Both the position numbers and the translations under genes were made by a program. Below the pieces are notes generated by a model. That model had not been told where the DNA came from, searched no databases, and was given only the letters and a program-made list of their open reading frames with translations. From Bdellovibrionales bacterium (GTDB lineage: Bacteria > Bdellovibrionota > Bdellovibrionia > Bdellovibrionales > UBA1609), in contig JAHDIR010000001.1 in assembly GCA_020630675.1 (NCBI GenBank), positions 89,015-153,014 of the forward strand: DNA of 64,000 nt. Reading direction: 5' to 3'. Each line of letters begins with the position of its first letter. The first letter of the stretch is position 1. This document shows positions 10,533-50,319 of the stretch, piece by piece.

Positions 10533-10955
10533 ATGGGGCAATCAAAACTAATTATCGTGAGCGATGAGCATTCAGTTGTTGAAAGCGCACGAGCCTTTGC
10601 TAACCACCACTCTTTAGAGCTGAGAGCTTACTCAGTCAGAGAATGGGAAGTTAAGCAGAGTACTCAAAATGAGGGCAGTATGCCGTCATTAAGTGCAGGA
10701 GCACAACCTCTCGAAAATGGAGCTAAAATCTTACAGTTTCCAGTTGGCGGTCAACCAATGCAACCCATTGGTGTTCAAAAAGTTGAAACGATCAACGACT
10801 TAGAGTGTAAGGCTATTAAAAAAGCCATTTTTGAATTTAAAGGAAATCTTACAGAAGCAGCAAAAGCCTTAGGGATTGGCCGAGCTACTCTTTACAGAAA
10901 GGTCAAGCAATACAATATTGACCCAAGTGAGGCGAGGCGTAGAAGAGCCGCTTAA
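10533..10955 (+). CDS. Fis-type HTH DNA-binding protein with non-canonical N-terminal region
   Basis: C-terminus LECKAIKKAIFEFKGNLTEAAKALGIGRATLYRKVKQYNI is a Fis/NtrC-type HTH_8. ATG 10533 is preceded by GGAGG; the track ORF starts at an upstream TTG. Confidence 0.72.
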   Translation: MGQSKLIIVSDEHSVVESARAFANHHSLELRAYSVREWEVKQSTQNEGSMPSLSAGAQPLENGAKILQFPVGGQPMQPIGVQKVETINDLECKAIKKAIFEFKGNLTEAAKALGIGRATLYRKVKQYNIDPSEARRRRAA

Positions 10956-20797: not shown

Positions 20798-22027
20798 TTG
20801 TTTTATTTTTGGGTGGCTTTACGTTCAATGACCAAAGGAAAAAACCTTAATTTGACAGCACTGTTGTCGGTGATTGGTTTGGCTTTGGGCGTGGCTTGTC
20901 TGGTGGTTTCTATGGTAGTAATTACCAGCTACTTGGGCACTCTAAAAAAAACAGTGATTGATATAAATGGCCATGTAAATTTATTAAAAAATATCACTGC
21001 GAGTGCCAAAACTCCTTTTTTAGAAAGTATTACTGATGATTTTAAAAAAGAAATCGTCGATTATACTCCTTTTCTTAATGCCTCAGCCTTGGTGGTTAAA
21101 AAAGGAAAAATGTCAGCTGTTTTTGTTCAAGGTTTTGATAGAGAGTCTGTACATAAGGTTTTAAATTTAGAGTCTCGATTAGTGAAGGGAGATCCTCCTC
21201 TGAAATCTTCATCTAAGGAAGCATCAGATTACCCTAGCGTTTGGGTGGGGCAACGCTTGGCTCGTGACTTTGAGTTTAAGGTGGGTGATGTCATTAACGC
21301 TGTTGTTCCTGTCGATAATACGCTAGATAATTTTAAACCTAAGTTGCAAAAATTTGTTATCAAAGGCTTGATGTCTTTTGGGCGCTATGATTATGACTCT
21401 CGATATTTAATCACCGACTTAAAGCCTTTGCAGGAGTTTGCCGAGCTTTCTGATCGACATTTAGGCTATCGCGTTAAGGTGAAAAGCCCAGATGTGGCCG
21501 TGAGTGTAGCTCGTAAGGTGAATGAGTTAGAGTACTCTGAAAATTATTGGGCCACTAGCTGGAGAGACATTAATGCGAACTTATTTGCGGCCGCTGATTA
21601 TGAAAAAATAGTTATCTTTTTTGTTTTATTAATTATTGTCATCGTCGCTTGTTTTAATGTAGCCAGTACTTTGTTTGTTAATGTTTTGGGGCAGTTTAGA
21701 GATATTGCCGTTTTAAAAACTATGGGTGTTACTGGAACTCAAATTAAGCGAATATTTATTTTTCAAGGCTTAATTATTGGGGTTTTGGGTTATTTATCTG
21801 GCCTTTTATTGGGAGGCTTATGTTGCTATTTATTTGTTTTTGCCCAAGAGCGTTGGGGAGTTCTAAGCGCTGAAGTTTATAAACTTGAGGGGCTTGTGAT
21901 TTCAGTTGAGCCTTTGGATGTTCTCGCTGTCGGAGTGGCTTCCATGTTAATATGTTTTGCGTCCACTCTTGTTCCAGCAACAAGAGGTGGGCAACTAATG
22001 CCAATGAAAGGGTTTGGTTATGAATAA
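20798..22027 (+). CDS. lolC: Lipoprotein-releasing system permease, LolC/LolE (FtsX-like) family
   Basis: 409 aa with a 4-TM MacB/FtsX topology and a large periplasmic loop. The TTG start directly abuts the prfB stop. Followed by lolD. Confidence 0.85.
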   Translation: MFYFWVALRSMTKGKNLNLTALLSVIGLALGVACLVVSMVVITSYLGTLKKTVIDINGHVNLLKNITASAKTPFLESITDDFKKEIVDYTPFLNASALVVKKGKMSAVFVQGFDRESVHKVLNLESRLVKGDPPLKSSSKEASDYPSVWVGQRLARDFEFKVGDVINAVVPVDNTLDNFKPKLQKFVIKGLMSFGRYDYDSRYLITDLKPLQEFAELSDRHLGYRVKVKSPDVAVSVARKVNELEYSENYWATSWRDINANLFAAADYEKIVIFFVLLIIVIVACFNVASTLFVNVLGQFRDIAVLKTMGVTGTQIKRIFIFQGLIIGVLGYLSGLLLGGLCCYLFVFAQERWGVLSAEVYKLEGLVISVEPLDVLAVGVASMLICFASTLVPATRGGQLMPMKGFGYE

Positions 22028-45051: not shown

Positions 45052-45082
45052 TTCTTAACTAAAACTTTCAAAATAAATTTAC

Positions 45083-45113
45083 AAAAAGAGAAGCCTATGA
45101 GCTTCTCTTTTTG
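45083..45113 (+). terminator. Rho-independent terminator of pilR
   Basis: Perfect 12-bp inverted repeat AAAAAGAGAAGC / GCTTCTCTTTTT with loop CTATGA and a T-run. Confidence 0.85.
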
Positions 45114-45549
45114 TATTGCCTATGAGATAAAAAACCAACTTTCAGAAACAATTAATAAAAATCCGGCAACCCCTTTAAAAGTTGACCCTCAATGGATTGA
45201 GGATCGTTTTTGGACTTGGGTTCATTGTGCAGCCTTGAGAATTGGTCGAGGTGAATTTTTTGAAGTTATTGGCTTTCTAGATTATATAAGAGAAACAGCA
45301 TTAAGCCCATTAAAAAAGAAACAGCTTGGTATTGCACCCTTTGGAGTTAGAAGGATCGAGCAATATAGCTTAGAGTTTTCACAAAAATTAAAAAAAACAA
45401 TTGCTGCTCATAGCAAAGAAAGCTGCACTTCTGCACTTCAAGAAACTATAAAGTTGTATCGTGAGTTACGTTCAGATATTTCTAGTAGTGAAATTATGAT
45501 AAATGAGGCTGCTGAAGTAGAGGCTACAGTATATTTGTCTAATTTATAG
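45097..45549 (+). pseudogene. Probable 5'-truncated nucleotidyltransferase remnant (ANT(6)/Lnu-like C-terminal helical domain only)
   Basis: FWTWVHCAALRIGRGEFFEVIGFLDYIR resembles the helical C-domain of aminoglycoside/lincosamide-type nucleotidyltransferases. No NTase catalytic domain upstream (in-frame TAA at 45055). The ATG lies in the loop of the pilR terminator. Confidence 0.45.
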
Positions 45550-45611
45550 ATTGAGTACTTATGCCCTAAAAACGTTTTTCTAGACTTCCTCACATTCTTT
45601 CGGTAAAAAAC
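45550..45611 (+). repeat. Islet repeat copy R1
   Basis: ATTGAGTACTTATGCCCTAAAAACGTTTTTCTAGACTTCCTCACATTCTTTCGGTAAAAAAC, starting 1 nt after the stop of the 45097 ORF. Confidence 0.75.
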
Positions 45612-45615
45612 TCCT

Positions 45616-45978
45616 ATGTGGCATGTTAAGTCTGAAGATATAAAAATGAAAAGTACTCCATCAGGGGAACTATTCTCTGTCTTAGTTGGGAGACATGAGT
45701 CTACCGGTGCTGCTAAAGAACAAACTGTTGCTATCGTGGATGTCCATCAAGATAAGAAGTCAGACCCTCATTTCCACAAAGAAAGAGAAGAATCATACTA
45801 CTTTTTATCTGGGGTAGGAATTGCTAAAATTGGAGATAAAGAAGTTAATGTTAAAGCTGGAGATTTAGTTTTTTCTAGGCCAGGTCAGCTTCATGAGTTT
45901 GTAAATATTGGAAACACTGAAATGAAGTATCTTGTTTTTACATCACCACAATGGACCCCAGAAGACTCTCATTATTAG
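45616..45978 (+). CDS. Cupin-domain protein
   Basis: HFHKEREESYYFLSG...AGDLVFSRPGQLHEFVN matches the cupin_2 two-motif pattern. 120 aa. Confidence 0.75.
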   Translation: MWHVKSEDIKMKSTPSGELFSVLVGRHESTGAAKEQTVAIVDVHQDKKSDPHFHKEREESYYFLSGVGIAKIGDKEVNVKAGDLVFSRPGQLHEFVNIGNTEMKYLVFTSPQWTPEDSHY

Positions 45979-46242
45979 CTCTTCAACTTAAATAAGCATG
46001 GGCTCACGTTTAAAGAAGCGTCAAAGTTTTTTACGGGGCAAAGTGACTATTTAGAGGTTTATGACGACTCCAACTTTGAAGATGAAGACCGATTCATTGC
46101 TATTGGGCCTATTGTAAAAGGTCTTATAGTTGTTGTTTATGTAGAGAGAGACTTTGACACACTTCGAATTATCTCAGCAAGAAAAGCATCTAGAGTTGAA
46201 GCTAGCTTATTTAATGAGTTTAAAAGAGGTAAAAATAAATGA
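45979..46242 (+). pseudogene. BrnT/DUF497-family toxin fragment lacking N-terminus and any start codon
   Basis: Not in the ORF track. Reads LFNLNKHGLTFKEASKFF...DEDRFIAIGPIVKGLIVVVYVERDFDTLRIISARKASRVEASLF...*, with the KHG.xF.EA, R..AIG and RIISAR.A motifs of DUF497. No in-frame ATG, GTG or TTG. Its stop overlaps the antitoxin ATG (ATGA). Confidence 0.7.
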
Positions 46243-46523
46243 GAGAATTAAATAAAAATGATTTTAAACGTTCAATTTCTGGGCGCTTAAGGCGTAAAAT
46301 TGCTGCTGGTAAAATTGACTCAGGTAAAGAAATAGCTAAATTGAGAAAATTTGTTAACCTAACTCAAGTTGAGTTTGCTGATGCTATGGGTATTAGCGTG
46401 TATACTCTAAGAAACTGGGAGCAAGGTCGTCGTATGCCAGAGGGGCCGGCTTTAGCACTTATGCTTATAGCTGCTCGTCACCCGAGAATTATTCGAGCAA
46501 ACTTAGAGTCGGCAGCTTTATAG
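46239..46523 (+). CDS. XRE-type HTH antitoxin (COG2944/BrnA-like partner of DUF497 toxins)
   Basis: LRKFVNLTQVEFADAMGISVYTLRNWEQGRRMPEGPALALMLIAARHP is the typical HTH antitoxin pattern. Translationally coupled to the toxin fragment. Confidence 0.8.
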   Translation: MRELNKNDFKRSISGRLRRKIAAGKIDSGKEIAKLRKFVNLTQVEFADAMGISVYTLRNWEQGRRMPEGPALALMLIAARHPRIIRANLESAAL

Positions 46524-46528
46524 TATAT

Positions 46529-46590
46529 ATTGAGTACTTTAATCCTAAAAAATCTTACCTGGACTAGCTCACGTTATTTTGCTAAAAAAA
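46529..46590 (+). repeat. Islet repeat copy R2
   Basis: ATTGAGTACTTTAATCCTAAAAAATCTTACCTGGACTAGCTCACGTTATTTTGCTAAAAAAA, 6 nt after the antitoxin stop. Confidence 0.75.
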
Positions 46591-46631
46591 GCAATAAATT
46601 GAAATAGCTTTAATAGAGAGGGTTGATAAAT

Positions 46632-47183
46632 ATGTTTTTCAAAAAAAATACAATCATAACCTTGAGTTTATTTAGTTTTATAACAGTAACTCTAAGCTGT
46701 AACGAGCCGTCAGAAAAGCCATCAGCCAAAGAACAAGTAAATGGAGAAGCTAGCAATAATACTTCTGCAAGAAACTCTCAAAAAAATATTGAGGTTAAGA
46801 ATGGTGTTGTCGAAATAAAAGTTGAGTCACTAAAATTACATCTAAAAGTTCCCATCAAATCTTATTATGACTCAAAAACTGAGTCATCTCTCTTCTCAGG
46901 TAGTCAAATTGAGGTTATTGCTCCATATCAAGGAATGGTGGAGTTTCACGCAAATAAAAAAGGTTATACGTTCGATAAAAAAAAATCTACCCCCAAATTG
47001 AATTTAGCTAGTCCTCATAGAGTTAAAAACTTTAATTGGGGTGAAGTCTTCGAATGGAGCACGCCAACAATTGGAACAAATATATATAGTTTTTTATGCT
47101 TAAAAAAGAAAGATAGTTGCATCATAATTGGACCTTACTCCTTGGCAGGTTTTGATTGGAAAAATTTGAATTTTATCAAATAA
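46632..47183 (+). CDS. Hypothetical lipoprotein
   Basis: ATG 46632 follows GAGAGGG. Signal peptide with lipobox TLSC. No recognised domain. Confidence 0.6.
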   Translation: MFFKKNTIITLSLFSFITVTLSCNEPSEKPSAKEQVNGEASNNTSARNSQKNIEVKNGVVEIKVESLKLHLKVPIKSYYDSKTESSLFSGSQIEVIAPYQGMVEFHANKKGYTFDKKKSTPKLNLASPHRVKNFNWGEVFEWSTPTIGTNIYSFLCLKKKDSCIIIGPYSLAGFDWKNLNFIK

Positions 47184-47191
47184 CCATATAG

Positions 47192-47250
47192 ATTGAGTAC
47201 TTCTAACAGATCACTCTAGACCTAGATGACCAGCGTGTTCTTTATTATGC
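47192..47250 (+). repeat. Islet repeat copy R3
   Basis: ATTGAGTACTTCTAACAGATCACTCTAGACCTAGATGACCAGCGTGTTCTTTATTATGC, 9 nt after the stop of the 46632 ORF. Confidence 0.7.
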
Positions 47251-47310
47251 CCTTTGATTTATTTACCGCAAAAAGTTGAATTATTCTTCTACATAGATTA
47301 CTAGTCAAAT

Positions 47311-48216
47311 ATGAATTTAGTCTTTTTATTATCATTCTTCTCTTTATTTTCAGTGAGCTGCTCTATGAATCCAAAAAAAAATAGCACCCCAATCTCCTAT
47401 ATCGGTGGTAGCTCAGGTTTAGGACATATGTTAAAAATTAAGGCCAATGTTTCTGGACAAGAAACTATGCTTATTTTTGATACTGGAATTGGTGTTAATT
47501 TAATTTCAAAATCTTTATGCTCTAAATTAAACTGTAAAATTAAAGGCTCTGTTGCTGGAAAAAGAATGACTGGTCAAATCGTCACAATACCGATGTCAAA
47601 GGTTACGAATTTACAAGTTGCAAATAACAAACAGAGCGATGTGGATGTAGGTGTTTTAGATTTGGATAGTTTTTTACCAAAGGAGCCAGAGTTTGATGGA
47701 GTTCAAGGCTACCTATCTTTAAACTTTCTAAAAAAACAGCCTTTCACTATTGATTATGAAAATGGGATGCTAATATTCGAAACGGCAGAAGAGCTAATAA
47801 AGAGAACTAAAAATTCTGAAATAATTCCAATTACGAAAAAAACAAAGGGTCTGGCTTTGACTATTCAAATCCCTGTTAAAACCCAAATAGAAAAAGCCTT
47901 AAATATGCAATTAGACCTTGGAACCAATATTATGACGATTAGTAGTAAGTTTTTGGAAGAGCTTCAACCGCAATTTGATGTTAGAACTTTGAAGAAAAAT
48001 TCGATAGTTGATGAAACAGGGTTTAAGAGAGAGCGAGTTTATGTAGAGCTCAACGGATATGTAAGCCCGCTATCAGATAACTTGCTACTTCAAAAAAAAC
48101 CTACAGTAATGTTTCAAGATATTATTTATGATGGAATTATTGGAAACGATTTTTTTAAAGGTAGAATTGTTACGTATGATTTAGAAAATTCTCGATTAAT
48201 TATTAATAGGAAATAA
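47311..48216 (+). CDS. Retropepsin-like (clan AA) aspartyl protease lipoprotein, two-lobed
   Basis: Lipobox FSVSC. First lobe MLIFDTGIGVNLIS (D-T-G) and second lobe QLDLGTNIMTIS. 301 aa. Confidence 0.65.
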   Translation: MNLVFLLSFFSLFSVSCSMNPKKNSTPISYIGGSSGLGHMLKIKANVSGQETMLIFDTGIGVNLISKSLCSKLNCKIKGSVAGKRMTGQIVTIPMSKVTNLQVANNKQSDVDVGVLDLDSFLPKEPEFDGVQGYLSLNFLKKQPFTIDYENGMLIFETAEELIKRTKNSEIIPITKKTKGLALTIQIPVKTQIEKALNMQLDLGTNIMTISSKFLEELQPQFDVRTLKKNSIVDETGFKRERVYVELNGYVSPLSDNLLLQKKPTVMFQDIIYDGIIGNDFFKGRIVTYDLENSRLIINRK

Positions 48217-48220
48217 CATA

Positions 48221-48280
48221 CAAACAAATTTTATTTTCTAGACACTAAATATTGCGACATTCGATCCGTAAAACCCAATT
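48221..48280 (+). repeat. Islet repeat copy R5 (core-only variant)
   Basis: CAAACAAATTTTATTTTCTAGACACTAAATATTGCGACATTCGATCCGTAAAACCCAATT, 5 nt after the protease stop. Near-identical layout to R6. Confidence 0.75.
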
Positions 48281-48281
48281 T

Positions 48282-48377
48282 AATGAGTACTAGGCTGTAG
48301 TCGTAATTATAAGTTGTACAAGCCAAAAAAAAGCTAGATCACATTGAAGTGACCTGGCTGTAAAATTATTTTGTTAA
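48282..48377 (+). repeat. Islet repeat copy R8 (expanded/degenerate)
   Basis: AATGAGTACT ... GCTAGATCAC ... GACCTGGCTGTAAAATTATTTTGTTAA; the boxes are in the same order as R2/R4 but with extra spacer. Confidence 0.5.
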
Positions 48378-48449
48378 CTGTTTGGTAAAGGCCCGATAAG
48401 GCATGGGGCCTTATTTATGGGCCTCAATAGCCAAGGTTTTGATATCAGC

Positions 48450-48512
48450 AAAGGTGCCCCGCATCTTCTGAGACACAGATGGTTTTAAAAAGTGCGGAGC
48501 ACCTTTTTTATT
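48450..48512 (+). terminator. Long GC-rich hairpin plus T-run (terminator or 3' end of a small RNA)
   Basis: AAAGGTGCCCCGCA / TGCGGAGCACCTTT (one mismatch), 29-nt loop, then TTTTTTA. Preceded by a second hairpin AAGGCCC / GGGCCTT at 48388..48412. Confidence 0.55.
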
Positions 48513-48635
48513 ATAATAATTAATTGCAAAAAAAATATAAAAGCAATCAACACACAAGATATGATTACTAGTCTTTCGGGAAAATATGTCTCATTTATTC
48601 ATTTTCGTAAAAGATTGTAAAATTTGAATAAAAAT

Positions 48636-48692
48636 CAGTAATAAAAAATTTCTGGTCTAGAAAAAACTTGGCCAGAAATTTAGTATTACAAT
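48636..48692 (-). repeat. Islet repeat copy R7 (inverted orientation, 3' of the minus-strand Cys-rich ORF)
   Basis: The minus strand reads ATTGTAATACTAAATTTCTGGCCAAGTTTTTTCTAGACCAGAAATTTTTTATTACTG. Contains hairpin ATTTCTGG/CCAGAAAT (48648..48679) followed by a T-run, so it probably also terminates that gene. Confidence 0.65.
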
Positions 48693-48703
48693 ATTTCTTA
48701 ATT

Positions 48704-49024
48704 TTAATTTGGACATTTTACATAAGTATTAAAATATGTACACTCTCCAGAGCCTGTATTGTATCTCTTGCATACTTCCTCTTCGTAACATCCAGAATCA
48801 CAGCTATATGTTTTTGTAGTTGTATTAAAATATGTACATTCTCCGGAGCCGGTATTATAACGTTGGCAAATTTTTTCTGTTAAATCCCTATAACAATCAG
48901 AAGATTGATTAGATTCACTTAATGTACATAAATATTCAGAGCCATTTTTATAATCATAGTAACTGTCGGCATTACAGACTGCACCTAAGCCAATAAAAAA
49001 TATTAAAATTATTGTTTTTTTCAT
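48704..49024 (-). CDS. Small secreted Cys-rich protein with internal tandem repeat
   Basis: ATG 49024 follows GGAGGA. Signal peptide MKKTIILIFFIGLGAVCNA. The mature ~87 aa has 10 Cys. The unit C(Q/K)RYNTGSGECTYFNT occurs twice. Confidence 0.7.
   Translation of the reverse strand: MKKTIILIFFIGLGAVCNADSYYDYKNGSEYLCTLSESNQSSDCYRDLTEKICQRYNTGSGECTYFNTTTKTYSCDSGCYEEEVCKRYNTGSGECTYFNTYVKCPN
48726..48868. repeat. Intragenic direct repeat (period 96 nt) inside the Cys-rich ORF
   Basis: GTATTAAAATATGTACACTCTCCAGAGCCTGTATTGTATCTCTTGCA (48726) versus GTATTAAAATATGTACATTCTCCGGAGCCGGTATTATAACGTTGGCA (48822). Confidence 0.85.
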
Positions 49025-49535
49025 TTTTCCTCCATTAAAATGTTTTTTACCTTTTAGAGCAAAGTGTGTACCATTATTAAAAAGTGACAAACTGAAAATG
49101 AATGGATTTTTTGACACCGTTTTAATGATATTAAGTACATATTGACACCATTTAAGTTATTTACATAACTCAAATGATTTTTACAAATAAGCAAGAGTAG
49201 GGAGCCAAGTTCAAATTGCTGTGAAACTTCCTTGTTGTTAATTACCCCAGTTAGGGGGGGCTGCGTTTCAAATATCTATCAGTAGCTTCCTCATAAATCT
49301 TCTAAGTACATTTACAGAATGCTTTTATTTTAGGTCATTGAAGTCTGCAAACATATCATTTTTTGGAAGCCCCGATAAGTTGAACAGGCTTCAAGTTTCA
49401 GGGCCTGAATTTAATAATGTTGATCAAAACTTATTTAAGGCAAAAATGTTCTTATACCTAAATCAACCGTTTACTTCGAAAGAGTAGCTTAAACTGAGGC
49501 TCGAGGTTTCCGAGAGTAGTCTAAGGTAATTCTTA

Positions 49536-49595
49536 ATTGAGCACTTACTTGGATTTTTCTAGACCTGGACAGCTTTACGTTATTTCGCTATAAAC
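49536..49595 (+). repeat. Islet repeat copy R4
   Basis: ATTGAGCACTTACTTGGATTTTTCTAGACCTGGACAGCTTTACGTTATTTCGCTATAAAC, about 40 nt after a decayed reading frame and 36 nt before the 49631 ORF. Confidence 0.75.
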
Positions 49596-49630
49596 TTTTA
49601 TTAATAGAGCCAAAAAAGTGGAGGCTCAAG

Positions 49631-50008
49631 ATGAAACTACTTACAATGTATTCAGTTATATTTGTTGCTTCAATTACTTCTGGAGGGACAATTGAATCAT
49701 TATATTGTGAAGTAGATAAGAAGAATAAAACGTTAATAGAGAAAGTTCAGGCGTTTTTTAAAAAAGAAAATACTAAAGAAAAACTAAAATTAGCTACAGG
49801 GTTAAGATCTGGACATTCAAAATATAGTTCAAAAAACAATATGGAGCCTTCAAAGATATACTTCTCACTTTTATCTAAAAAGTTTATTTCGTCTCAAGTT
49901 AAAAAAAATAATTTTGTTGAATTAAAATATTTTTTAAATGGAACCTTGTCTCTTGAGGCCTGCGGAGGCTCCAGTGTAAAAGTAGGTAAATCCGGTCATT
50001 TTGATTAA
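49631..50008 (+). CDS. Small secreted hypothetical protein
   Basis: ATG follows GTGGAGG. N-terminal hydrophobic signal-like segment. 125 aa, Lys-rich. Confidence 0.55.
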   Translation: MKLLTMYSVIFVASITSGGTIESLYCEVDKKNKTLIEKVQAFFKKENTKEKLKLATGLRSGHSKYSSKNNMEPSKIYFSLLSKKFISSQVKKNNFVELKYFLNGTLSLEACGGSSVKVGKSGHFD

Positions 50009-50039
50009 AATAAAATTAGACTAACTTTAAAATAACATA

Positions 50040-50098
50040 GAAACAAAAATTACTTTTTAGACACTAAATATTGTGGCAATTAATCGCTAAAACCTAAC
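50040..50098 (+). repeat. Islet repeat copy R6 (core-only variant)
   Basis: GAAACAAAAATTACTTTTTAGACACTAAATATTGTGGCAATTAATCGCTAAAACCTAACC aligns position-for-position with R5. Confidence 0.75.
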
Positions 50099-50319
50099 CG
50101 CTCTTTTTAAACTTAACACGCTTACTAGAGACCTTACTACCACCAGATTAAGCAGTTTTATCATATTTAACGCTGTATTTGTTATTTGAAAACACTTATT
50201 TTACTCCTTTTTAAAACAAGCATTCTCTTCATAAACTAAAGTCCATGACAAAGTGTTTGCAAAATTAAAAATGACAAATTTATTTCCAAATTAGGGGGTG
50301 ACAACATGTTTTCAAGATA

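Follow-up and report, generated by a model that had tools for sequence, protein, structure and literature searches.

A candidate array of small mobile gene units with an ATTG-delimited junction in a Bdellovibrionales genome

The DNA analysed here is a 64-kb stretch of contig JAHDIR010000001.1 from a Bdellovibrionales bacterium (G+C about 35%), to which we refer in the following as the window. Between about 45 and 50 kb it contains what is, judged from the sequence, a row, about 5 kb long, of unrelated small gene units arranged head to tail and joined by a conserved junction. This array looks like a non-integron way of collecting gene cassettes, and the evidence for it comes from three populations and from sequence alone. 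Its features are listed below; R1 to R8 are the repeat copies, A and B the two junction families, L numbers denote loci in other genomes, and a slash marks the 3' edge of the junction tetranucleotide.

Gene units and junctions of the array

45080–45118, plus strand: intrinsic terminator hairpin of a conserved NtrC-type regulator gene, the left edge of the array (terminator scan)
45115–45553, plus: unit 0, 5'-truncated nucleotidyltransferase gene remnant (homology), open reading frame (ORF) 45097–45549, end ...TATAG-ATTG
45545–45610, plus: A junction R1, TATAG ATTG/AGTACTT..TTTTCTAGAC..CTCACATTCTTTCGG TAAAAA (leave-one-out E = 3e-7)
45554–46532, plus: unit 1, cupin (45616–45978), N-truncated BrnT remnant (46000–46242) and helix-turn-helix (HTH) antitoxin (46239–46523), assigned by Pfam; end TATAT-ATTG
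46524–46589, plus: A junction R2 (leave-one-out E = 7e-9; 84% identity to the L104 copy)
46533–47195, plus: unit 2, orphan lipoprotein gene (46632–47183), end TATAG-ATTG (junction alignment)
47187–47255, plus: A junction R3, variant right arm, common to the second A copy of L202 (leave-one-out E = 0.055)
47196–48254, plus: unit 3, retropepsin-like Asp-protease lipoprotein, 1,059 bp, from AGTACTT to ...CTAAATATTG (Pfam; 89% match to L202)
48207–48287, plus: B junction R5, AAATAACAT..TTTTCTAGACACTAAAT ATTG/CGACATTCGATCCGTAAAACC (enlarged-model E = 1e-18)
48282–48372, plus: R8, possible degenerate A copy, AATG/AGTACTA ... CTAGATCACATT (E = 81 only)
48636–48692, minus: R7, 3' of the Cys-rich gene, ..AAATATTG/TAATACT..TTTTTTCTAGACC (hairpin and T-run)
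48704–49024, minus: gene for a Cys-rich secreted protein with an internal 96-nt repeat, the sole inverted unit (ORF and repeat search)
49130–49195, plus: degenerate A copy at best (ATTAAGTACAT...), ATTA/AGTACAT..TTGACA-17 nt (AGTTATTT in register)-ATAACT (by-eye comparison with the A copy of L212)
49531–49598, plus: A junction R4, ATTG/AGCACTT..TTTTTCTAGACCTGGACA-17 nt-TATAAA (leave-one-out E = 0.02; promoter-like, 10/12)
49540–50073, plus: unit 5, gene for a 125-aa secreted protein (49631–50008), from AGCACTT to ...CTAAATATTG, a complete A-gene-B unit (junction alignment)
50028–50106, plus: B junction R6, right end of the array (enlarged-model E = 8e-17)

The initial annotation had described eight copies of one element at this locus. 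The repeats are real and local, and R1 to R6 are statistically solid; however, by their alignment they form two related junction families and not one, A (R1 to R4) and B (R5 and R6), which have only the ATTG, a core of about 20 nt (TTCGATCC.TAAAAC) and a TTTYCTRGAC motif in common. In detail, the 11-mer ATTGAGTACTT occurs three times exactly in the 64 kb (45550, 46529 and 47192) and once with one mismatch (49536), and all four exact occurrences of TTTTCTAGAC in the 64 kb lie inside 45.5–49.6 kb. Each of R1 to R4 was the top non-training match in the window in leave-one-out nhmmer profile searches (E values from 7e-9 to 0.055). R5 and R6 show 81% identity over 68 nt, and independent copies from other organisms match the window elements at 84–87%. 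Models enlarged with outside copies found no further A or B copies in the 64 kb beyond these six, as had been annotated; what had been overlooked is the degenerate A copy at 49130. This copy is the start of a decayed unit (49134–49539).

In the case of R7, previously counted as a full-length copy, the A model fails to detect it even at E<=100, and R8 is only found at E = 81. R7 folds into a strong hairpin with a T-run behind it (z = -3.35), i.e. an intrinsic terminator; it also contains ...AAATATTG/TAATACT and TTTTCTAGACC without mismatch, and as an A/B-type junction it would be a diverged one. R8 has box 1 and the box-3-like CTAGATCACATT, and overlaps a minus-strand terminator-like hairpin at 48336–48355. 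Together with the site at 49130, R7 and R8 are degenerate copies at best.

To describe the junctions, all of them were aligned on the common tetranucleotide. The A layout is a weak TAWAK, ATTG/AGTACTT, a variable stretch of 12–19 nt, (TTTT)CTRGAC, CTCACGTTATTTYG and TAWAAA, whereas the B layout is AAATAACAT...TTTYCTRGACACTAAAT ATTG/YGRCA-TTCGATCC-GTAAAACC. In A, the ATTG is followed by some 60 nt (AGTACTT...CTRGAC...CACGTTATTT) that have no structure and resemble a promoter. Between the A copy of L104 and the B copy R5, 18 of 24 positions are identical. Across nine A copies, identity in the 30 nt left of the tetranucleotide was 28% (background 27%), compared to 53% in the 30 nt to its right; conservation is confined to the 3' side. 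AGTACTT is nearly invariant, being kept in 7/9 A copies, and the tetranucleotide itself was seen as ATTG, AATG, ATTA and AATA.

Folding both DNA strands, as the initial annotation had suggested, gave no hairpin in R1 to R6: minimum free energies ranged from 0 to -3.7 kcal/mol and were no better than those of shuffles (z = -0.16 to +1.85). The A and B elements are therefore not attC sites, repetitive extragenic palindromes (REP) or terminators. Similarly, the terminator scan found no terminator-like site at R1 to R6, R7 alone having a hairpin and T-run, and Rfam (at gathering thresholds and at E<=5) returned only terminator look-alikes and no family for the repeats. None of the inverted repeats listed for the window joins the ends of an A or B copy, and the units are direct and asymmetric.

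The promoter-likeness of A shows in its register. Five of the nine A copies carry T[AG]GAC[AT]-17 nt-TAWAAA in one fixed register (8–10 of 12 positions, with 10 of 12 in R4 and in the A copy of L212), and the other copies do not; the standard promoter scan made no calls at A or B. A same-strand ORF lies 12–110 nt 3' of the A copy in 8/9 copies, that is, in all with downstream sequence available. By its motifs, the A right arm may serve the downstream gene as a sigma-70-type promoter. Three other ideas were tried and rejected: a sigma-54 promoter in A, suggested by the NtrC neighbour (by eye, GG/GC spacing wrong); a read-through peptide or small ORF across A (copies lie in different frames and differ by indels); and an origin of B from a tRNA fragment (by eye).

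As the initial annotation had it, copies adjoin stop codons and the cargo is small and unrelated: Pfam recovers the cupin, the N-truncated BrnT with its HTH antitoxin, the Asp-protease lipoprotein and the Cys-rich protein. The lipoprotein of unit 2 has no homologue but itself among 5.8 billion proteins (ORFan). Each unit contains 3–10 internal ATTG. In the Cys-rich gene, a 57-nt segment is repeated at 96-nt spacing (48726–48878, 79% identity) and encodes RYNTGSGECTYFNT repeats. The stretch between R8 and R7 (48290–48640) is non-coding, with several strong hairpins and no Rfam match, and may be a decayed unit or a small RNA; by eye, a hairpin and then a T-run lie at ~48451–48510 (plus strand) and AAGGCCC...GGGCCTT at ~48390–48425. 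Clusters of three (T/A)TGACA(A/C) motifs each occur at 49080–49160, upstream of the Cys-rich gene, and at 50240–50310, in the spacer after R6; judging by the motifs, these could be promoters or an operator.

At the left edge, the gene order as far as 45051 is conserved in 80 Bdellovibrionales genomes; it consists of a 405-aa ORF, then a histidine kinase gene and the gene of a sigma-54-type response regulator. None of these genomes exceeds 79% identity in the regulator, so the window's own species is not in the genome collection. Synteny breaks off at the regulator terminator, none of the 80 syntenic loci holds homologues of the cargo genes, and no A copy was found in the 80 related loci (1.3 Mb from 80 relatives). 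Altogether this places the array at a synteny break, and the generic genome-wide repeat that the initial annotation had named as the alternative was not found. An ATTG (45115–45118) stands at the 3' foot of the terminator hairpin, and precisely there begins the homology of unit 0 to full-length nucleotidyltransferases, its residues 7–150 aligning to residues 115–258 of a 267-aa family; the nominal ATG of the ORF falls within the terminator. The array at L104, in another genome, also opens with a 5'-truncated gene (GNAT) right behind a host terminator.

The same unit and an IS91-type element in other genomes

Strict A/B patterns matched one genome among 185,579 species genomes, a Bdellovibrionales metagenome-assembled genome (MAG; CALLBC01), and found no match in metagenome or viral contigs. 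In this MAG, the truncated GNAT gene of L104 has an A copy 3' of it, and at L201 a B copy begins 2 nt past the stop of the gene for a small secreted protein. The window and the MAG have the elements alone in common (84–87% identity), the cargo being unrelated. The strict patterns were too narrow, as they miss real JGI copies (L202, L204 and L205, with ATTA/AATA and TGGACGC variants), and the distribution of the elements is thus underestimated. A loose two-box pattern gave, apart from L104, chance matches only in genome contigs, and a plasmid search gave no match to the array.

More insight was gained from the protease gene, of which an 87%-identical homologue was found on five identical metagenome contigs from five samples. 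L202 has the following layout: IS91-family transposase gene <- tyrosine recombinase gene, then A, a SnoaL-like ORF with a histidine phosphatase, A, the protease, B, and the start of a second insertion sequence (IS) copy. The protease unit matches L202 3404–4462 at 89% DNA identity over 1,060 nt. Both boundaries of this homology are exact, the left one at the A that opens AGTACTT (47196) and the right one at the final base of the ATTG in B (48254); left of 47196, identity between the window and L202 is at chance level and the upstream genes differ. Even the tetranucleotide before the unit differs, being ATTG in the window and AATA in L202. Thus the protease unit recurs in another array with different neighbours and with its edges at the junction site.

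This comparison also decides to which gene the repeat belongs. The initial annotation had proposed that the element travels with the gene upstream of it, as a 3'-UTR module. Instead, the odd right arm of R3 is common to the L202 copy while the upstream genes differ, and from AGTACTT onward the repeat therefore goes with the downstream gene. On these alignments the unit is the stretch from AGTACTT to ATTG, with the repeat as a 5' module of the following gene. The cassette-like nature of the array is borne out by the recurrence of the unit with exact boundaries and by the recombinase/transposase pair in related contigs. Likewise, the view that it does not fit integron attC, REP/BIME (bacterial interspersed mosaic element) or MITE (miniature inverted-repeat transposable element) agrees with the lack of hairpins, of terminal inverted repeats and of genome-wide copies. 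Remoter protease homologues (60–68%) stand in other contexts, without A or B. At L217 (1950–2200), behind a 65% homologue come AAATAACAC..TTCTAGACAC, which is a B-left-like tail, and then tRNA-like sequence, and at L207 (9085–10921) a 68% homologue lies beside another tyrosine recombinase within a type IV secretion (conjugative) gene cluster.

A search for a recombinase had been recommended. In the window itself, tblastn and blastn found no recombinase, transposase or IS ends in the 64 kb; in the related contigs, an IntI-like tyrosine recombinase adjoins the arrays. The L202 recombinase, about 297 aa after frameshift repair, is Xer/IntI-like and below every NCBIfam cutoff, scoring 154 bits against TIGR02249 (cutoff 265) in two stretches. 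Its best solved-structure match is the integron integrase VchIntIA (2a3v, E = 1e-27). Its residues 171–207 (37 aa) replace IntI4 residues 173–240 (68 aa), about 31 residues fewer, and by this alignment it lacks the IntI-specific insertion (the extra domain). IS91-associated recombinases have been reported to be the closest homologues of IntI, without the IntI insertion (bioRxiv 10.1101/542381). The transposase is a Y2 enzyme with 256 bits to NF033538 (NCBIfam IS91, cutoff 125), and an HUH Y2 gene is found in L202, L212 and L214. An IS91-family Y2 transposase gene follows the recombinase gene in every close homologue examined (84%, 71%, 56% and 53% identity), and such gene pairs are annotated on many plasmids; a Legionella plasmid with the pair shows no comparable array.

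In the 100%, 84% and 71% copies, the split of the recombinase gene has the same position (L202 ~1445–1465, L212 ~1240–1262, L214 ~10715–10740); the -1 frame directly behind A_AAA_AAA_AAG, a classic slippery site, encodes the catalytic C-terminus (HxxR...Y). By its sequence the split looks like a conserved programmed -1 frameshift. Many database homologues have 235–260 aa, and the 56% homologue is contiguous.

The position of the IS relative to the junction is precise. In L202, L212 and L213, the recombinase-proximal (ter) IS end (...GCATTTGGTCC) abuts the ATTA or ATTG that precedes the AGTAC of an A copy. The recombinase proteins of L212 and L213 are identical, as are the ~160-nt recombinase-proximal end regions, and their A parts are about 80% alike (by eye), which indicates that A is flank and not part of the IS. 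At L212, ATTG stands on both sides of the IS (ATTG/ori...ter-ATTG/AGTAC), and the rebuilt empty site TATAT-ATTG-AGTAC matches R2. The ATTG of B in L202 is followed directly by the second IS copy. Seen from the IS, the arrays are on its terIS side. In the case of L214, AATG flanks both sides, although sister elements suggest that the ter-side AATG may be IS-internal. By eye, the IS ends of L212 and L214 show the anatomy of the IS91 family, with a 9-bp hairpin that stands 7 nt ahead of the ter tetranucleotide and, at the ori end, a long subterminal stem; the shuffle z scores are modest (-1.55 to -2.4). An extended target with GCCAAT after AWTG, seen in sister IS variants, was withdrawn, since the inverted repeat of L219 shows it to be probably part of those elements.

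Two further observations concern these loci. L214 6454–12391, in a Bdellovibrionales MAG, has the LPG-synthase-like/MgtE/RecO gene order of window 51.5–54.4 kb, directly followed by a 71%-related IS91 and recombinase element; relatives of the window's organism therefore possess this IS family. The contig name of L212 (ENA ERZ6864144, contig c_000000806402) and those of L104 and L201 (MAG CALLBC01, contigs c_0000...) suggest one assembly, and all three contigs end in or near repeats, as expected if repeats break short-read assemblies.

Possible origins of the array

Published properties of the IS91 family match the logic of the junctions. Its members make no target duplication and insert with the target tetranucleotide adjoining oriIS; in the case of IS801 and IS1294, target and terIS cleavage site share their tetranucleotide. 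One-ended transposition occurs at 1–14% and co-mobilises DNA beside terIS, ending at a tetranucleotide (PMC13181058, PMC3189936). Because of this match, and because the arrays lie on the terIS side, we tentatively favour accretion by rolling-circle machinery, and it is possible, if short of even confidence, that the array in the window is an orphan one, its small mobile gene units having been brought together by rolling-circle capture of the IS91 type, with a tetranucleotide as delimiter. Each unit would open right after the tetranucleotide with AGTACTT and an unstructured, promoter-like leader of about 55 nt, and would close with ...(TAWAK)ATTG. An A element would then consist of the final few bases of one unit and, joined to them, the 5' end of the following unit; a B element would join the conserved 3' end that some units have to a form of the same core without promoter. 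An IS91-family element with its HUH Y2 transposase would cut 3' of ATTG, insert at ATTG/AGTACTT, and capture and deliver units. When termination at terIS fails (one-ended rolling-circle transposition), the adjacent unit or units would be carried along up to the next ...ATTG. Re-insertion of the IS beside another resident unit would let arrays grow by accretion, and its loss or precise excision would leave an array without enzyme, as in the window. The junction anatomy, the exact unit boundaries in two contexts and the IS precisely at the junction are direct observations; the acting enzyme, the direction of capture and the promoter function of the leader we infer.

The conservation on one side of the presumed cut fits single-strand cleavage signals rather than two-armed duplex sites, and A and B elements are few and occur in accessory DNA only, which also speaks for this rolling-circle account. 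Several points weigh against it. There is no IS in the 64 kb, and the IS copies beside L202 are decayed, with a truncated transposase. IS91 ends need palindromes, and A and B lack subterminal palindromes and fold worse than shuffles, which makes independent mobilisation of the units in trans doubtful. With 3–10 internal ATTG per unit, termination would need an extra, undefined context. Simple accretion also leaves it unexplained how unrelated genes first acquired their A leaders. At both known array edges (window and L104) a 5'-truncated gene follows the host terminator, which is not something that one-ended transposition predicts, and the account draws on three populations only.

As the main alternative, though rather unlikely in our view, the tyrosine recombinase of the IS91-type element would exchange units at double-stranded A/B sites with AGTACTT as overlap, in the manner of an integron platform: units would excise as circles and integrate at A, the recombinase-adjacent A copy would take the role of attI, and the Y2 transposase would only move the platform. 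The closeness of the recombinase to VchIntIA (2a3v, E = 1e-27) and of IS91-associated recombinases to IntI (bioRxiv 10.1101/542381) is in line with this, as is the A copy found in L202, L212 and L213 ~165 nt upstream of the divergent recombinase gene and followed by same-strand ORFs. The nearly invariant AGTACTT (7/9) would suit an overlap and the absence of hairpins suits duplex sites; A-gene-B units are bracketed by a common core of ~24 nt resembling attL/attR (the 18/24 identity of L104-A and R5-B), and the IS ori end after ATTG loosely resembles the A/B core. However, a conserved left arm is absent, the presumed overlap is not flanked by inverted binding sites, and the sequence directly behind AGTACTT differs between subfamilies. 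The B 7-mer is a different one (CGACATT), so that A x B exchange would proceed without an identical overlap; variation of the tetranucleotide is like that of IS801 targets; a frameshift splits the recombinase gene in all close copies; and most internal junctions are without the B-type left arm expected of tandem integrated circles. We give a low probability to the wider proposal that IS91-type elements with an IntI-like recombinase are gene-capture platforms, in which the recombinase would insert and excise promoter-bearing units at a duplex ATTG-AGTACTT beside its own gene and Y2 would move the array. The units may also not be mobile at all. A would then be the promoter/operator module of a small lineage-specific regulon, the array would stem from horizontal transfer and A-A homologous recombination, and the IS would merely prefer A. 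The sigma-70-like T[AG]GAC[AT] + 17 nt + TAWAAA of 5/9 A copies, with box 3 in the spacer like an operator, and the same-strand ORF 12–110 nt 3' of A in 8/9 are what such a module would show. We nevertheless consider this improbable, as the base-exact edges of the shared unit lie at the tetranucleotide and not within the A body, where recombination would fall; no A copy stands at other genes in the 64 kb or in 1.3 Mb of sequence of 80 relatives; the cargo genes have no function in common and are in part decayed; and a promoter-like register is missing from B.

A classical integron cassette array without integrase (CALIN), with A/B as attC, can be regarded as effectively refuted. Small ORFs of unrelated function in the same orientation, toxin-antitoxin (TA) genes, acetyl- and nucleotidyltransferase remnants and repeats at ORF ends do recall such arrays; against this, A and B form no hairpin on either strand (z = -0.16 to +1.85), an R''/R' inverse core pair is not visible by eye, the linked recombinase is without the IntI insertion (154 against an NCBIfam cutoff of 265), and the bulk of each repeat is 5' of its gene. 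It is equally far-fetched to take the elements for a generic intergenic repeat of the REP/BIME kind, a MITE or a transcription terminator. The position just behind stop codons and the genuine hairpin and T-run of R7 would fit, but A and B are unstructured and not palindromic, no terminal inverted repeats were found at the A/B copies, no terminator-like sites at A or B, and no Rfam family. A generic repeat is further contradicted by the lack of extra copies in the 64 kb, of A in the 80 related loci, and of any strict-pattern match but one MAG among 185,579 species genomes.

Comparison with known systems

Like IS91, IS801, IS1294 and ISCR1, the array-linked IS has its target tetranucleotide by oriIS, the same kind of tetranucleotide at its end and no target duplication. 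IS91/ISCR elements co-mobilise terIS-side DNA up to a tetranucleotide, and an IS91-family transposase adjoins arrays of the present kind. Unlike in these elements, the tetranucleotide is AWTG here and not GTTC/CTTG, an IntI-like tyrosine recombinase is encoded in the IS, and the captured DNA would be ordered regularly into separate units that each have a conserved leader of ~60 nt and no ori/ter palindromes. In the literature surveyed, no arrays of this kind are described for IS91 or ISCR. Gene capture by IS91/ISCR and IS91 elements carrying a tyrosine recombinase are already known; new, as far as the literature searched goes, would be the regular array of promoter-bearing units with a junction that is a specific IS91-type insertion site.

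With integrons and CALINs, the array has in common head-to-tail, small, unrelated and mostly same-strand genes, one unit in different arrays, a linked recombinase of the kind closest to IntI, and a junction copy by a divergent recombinase gene, as attI. It differs in that the sites are not folded attC, conservation lies 5' of each gene and the units seem to carry their own promoter, and in that the recombinase, which has no IntI insertion, occurs together with a Y2 transposase and is missing from the window. The recurrence of the protease unit across arrays can thus be likened to integrons in behaviour only. IS1111-attC insertion sequences and group IIC-attC introns insert site-specifically into cassette-array junction sites, as the IS does here; they belong to other enzyme families and have folded attC targets.

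Helitrons, the eukaryotic Y2 rolling-circle elements, resemble the present system in a short specific insertion site, asymmetric ends and gene capture by read-through, and differ from it in being eukaryotic, in their Rep-helicase enzyme and in requiring a 3' hairpin; non-autonomous Helitron copies can lie head to tail. Also similar are the pdif (XerC/D) modules of Acinetobacter plasmids, which are small, often carry TA genes and have short recombinase sites with no dedicated recombinase nearby. The pdif sites are two-armed, 28 bp long and of alternating orientation, whereas the junctions here are direct and one-sided.

Gene capture by IS91/ISCR has so far been inferred mostly from one-off resistance-gene contexts, and the role of the tyrosine recombinase in many IS91-family members is not addressed in the literature surveyed. 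The array offers a concrete, testable substrate, in the form of ATTG/AGTACTT, the A leader and the B tail. If the recombinase did act as a platform, this would be a sister system to integrons with unfolded sites and a possible model of integron origin. In annotation, IntegronFinder-type tools would not see such arrays.

Apart from the array, ARAGORN calls a 92-nt 'tRNA-???' with a four-base anticodon (gact) at 21235–21326, inside ORF 20798–22027, which may be a false call or an oddity.

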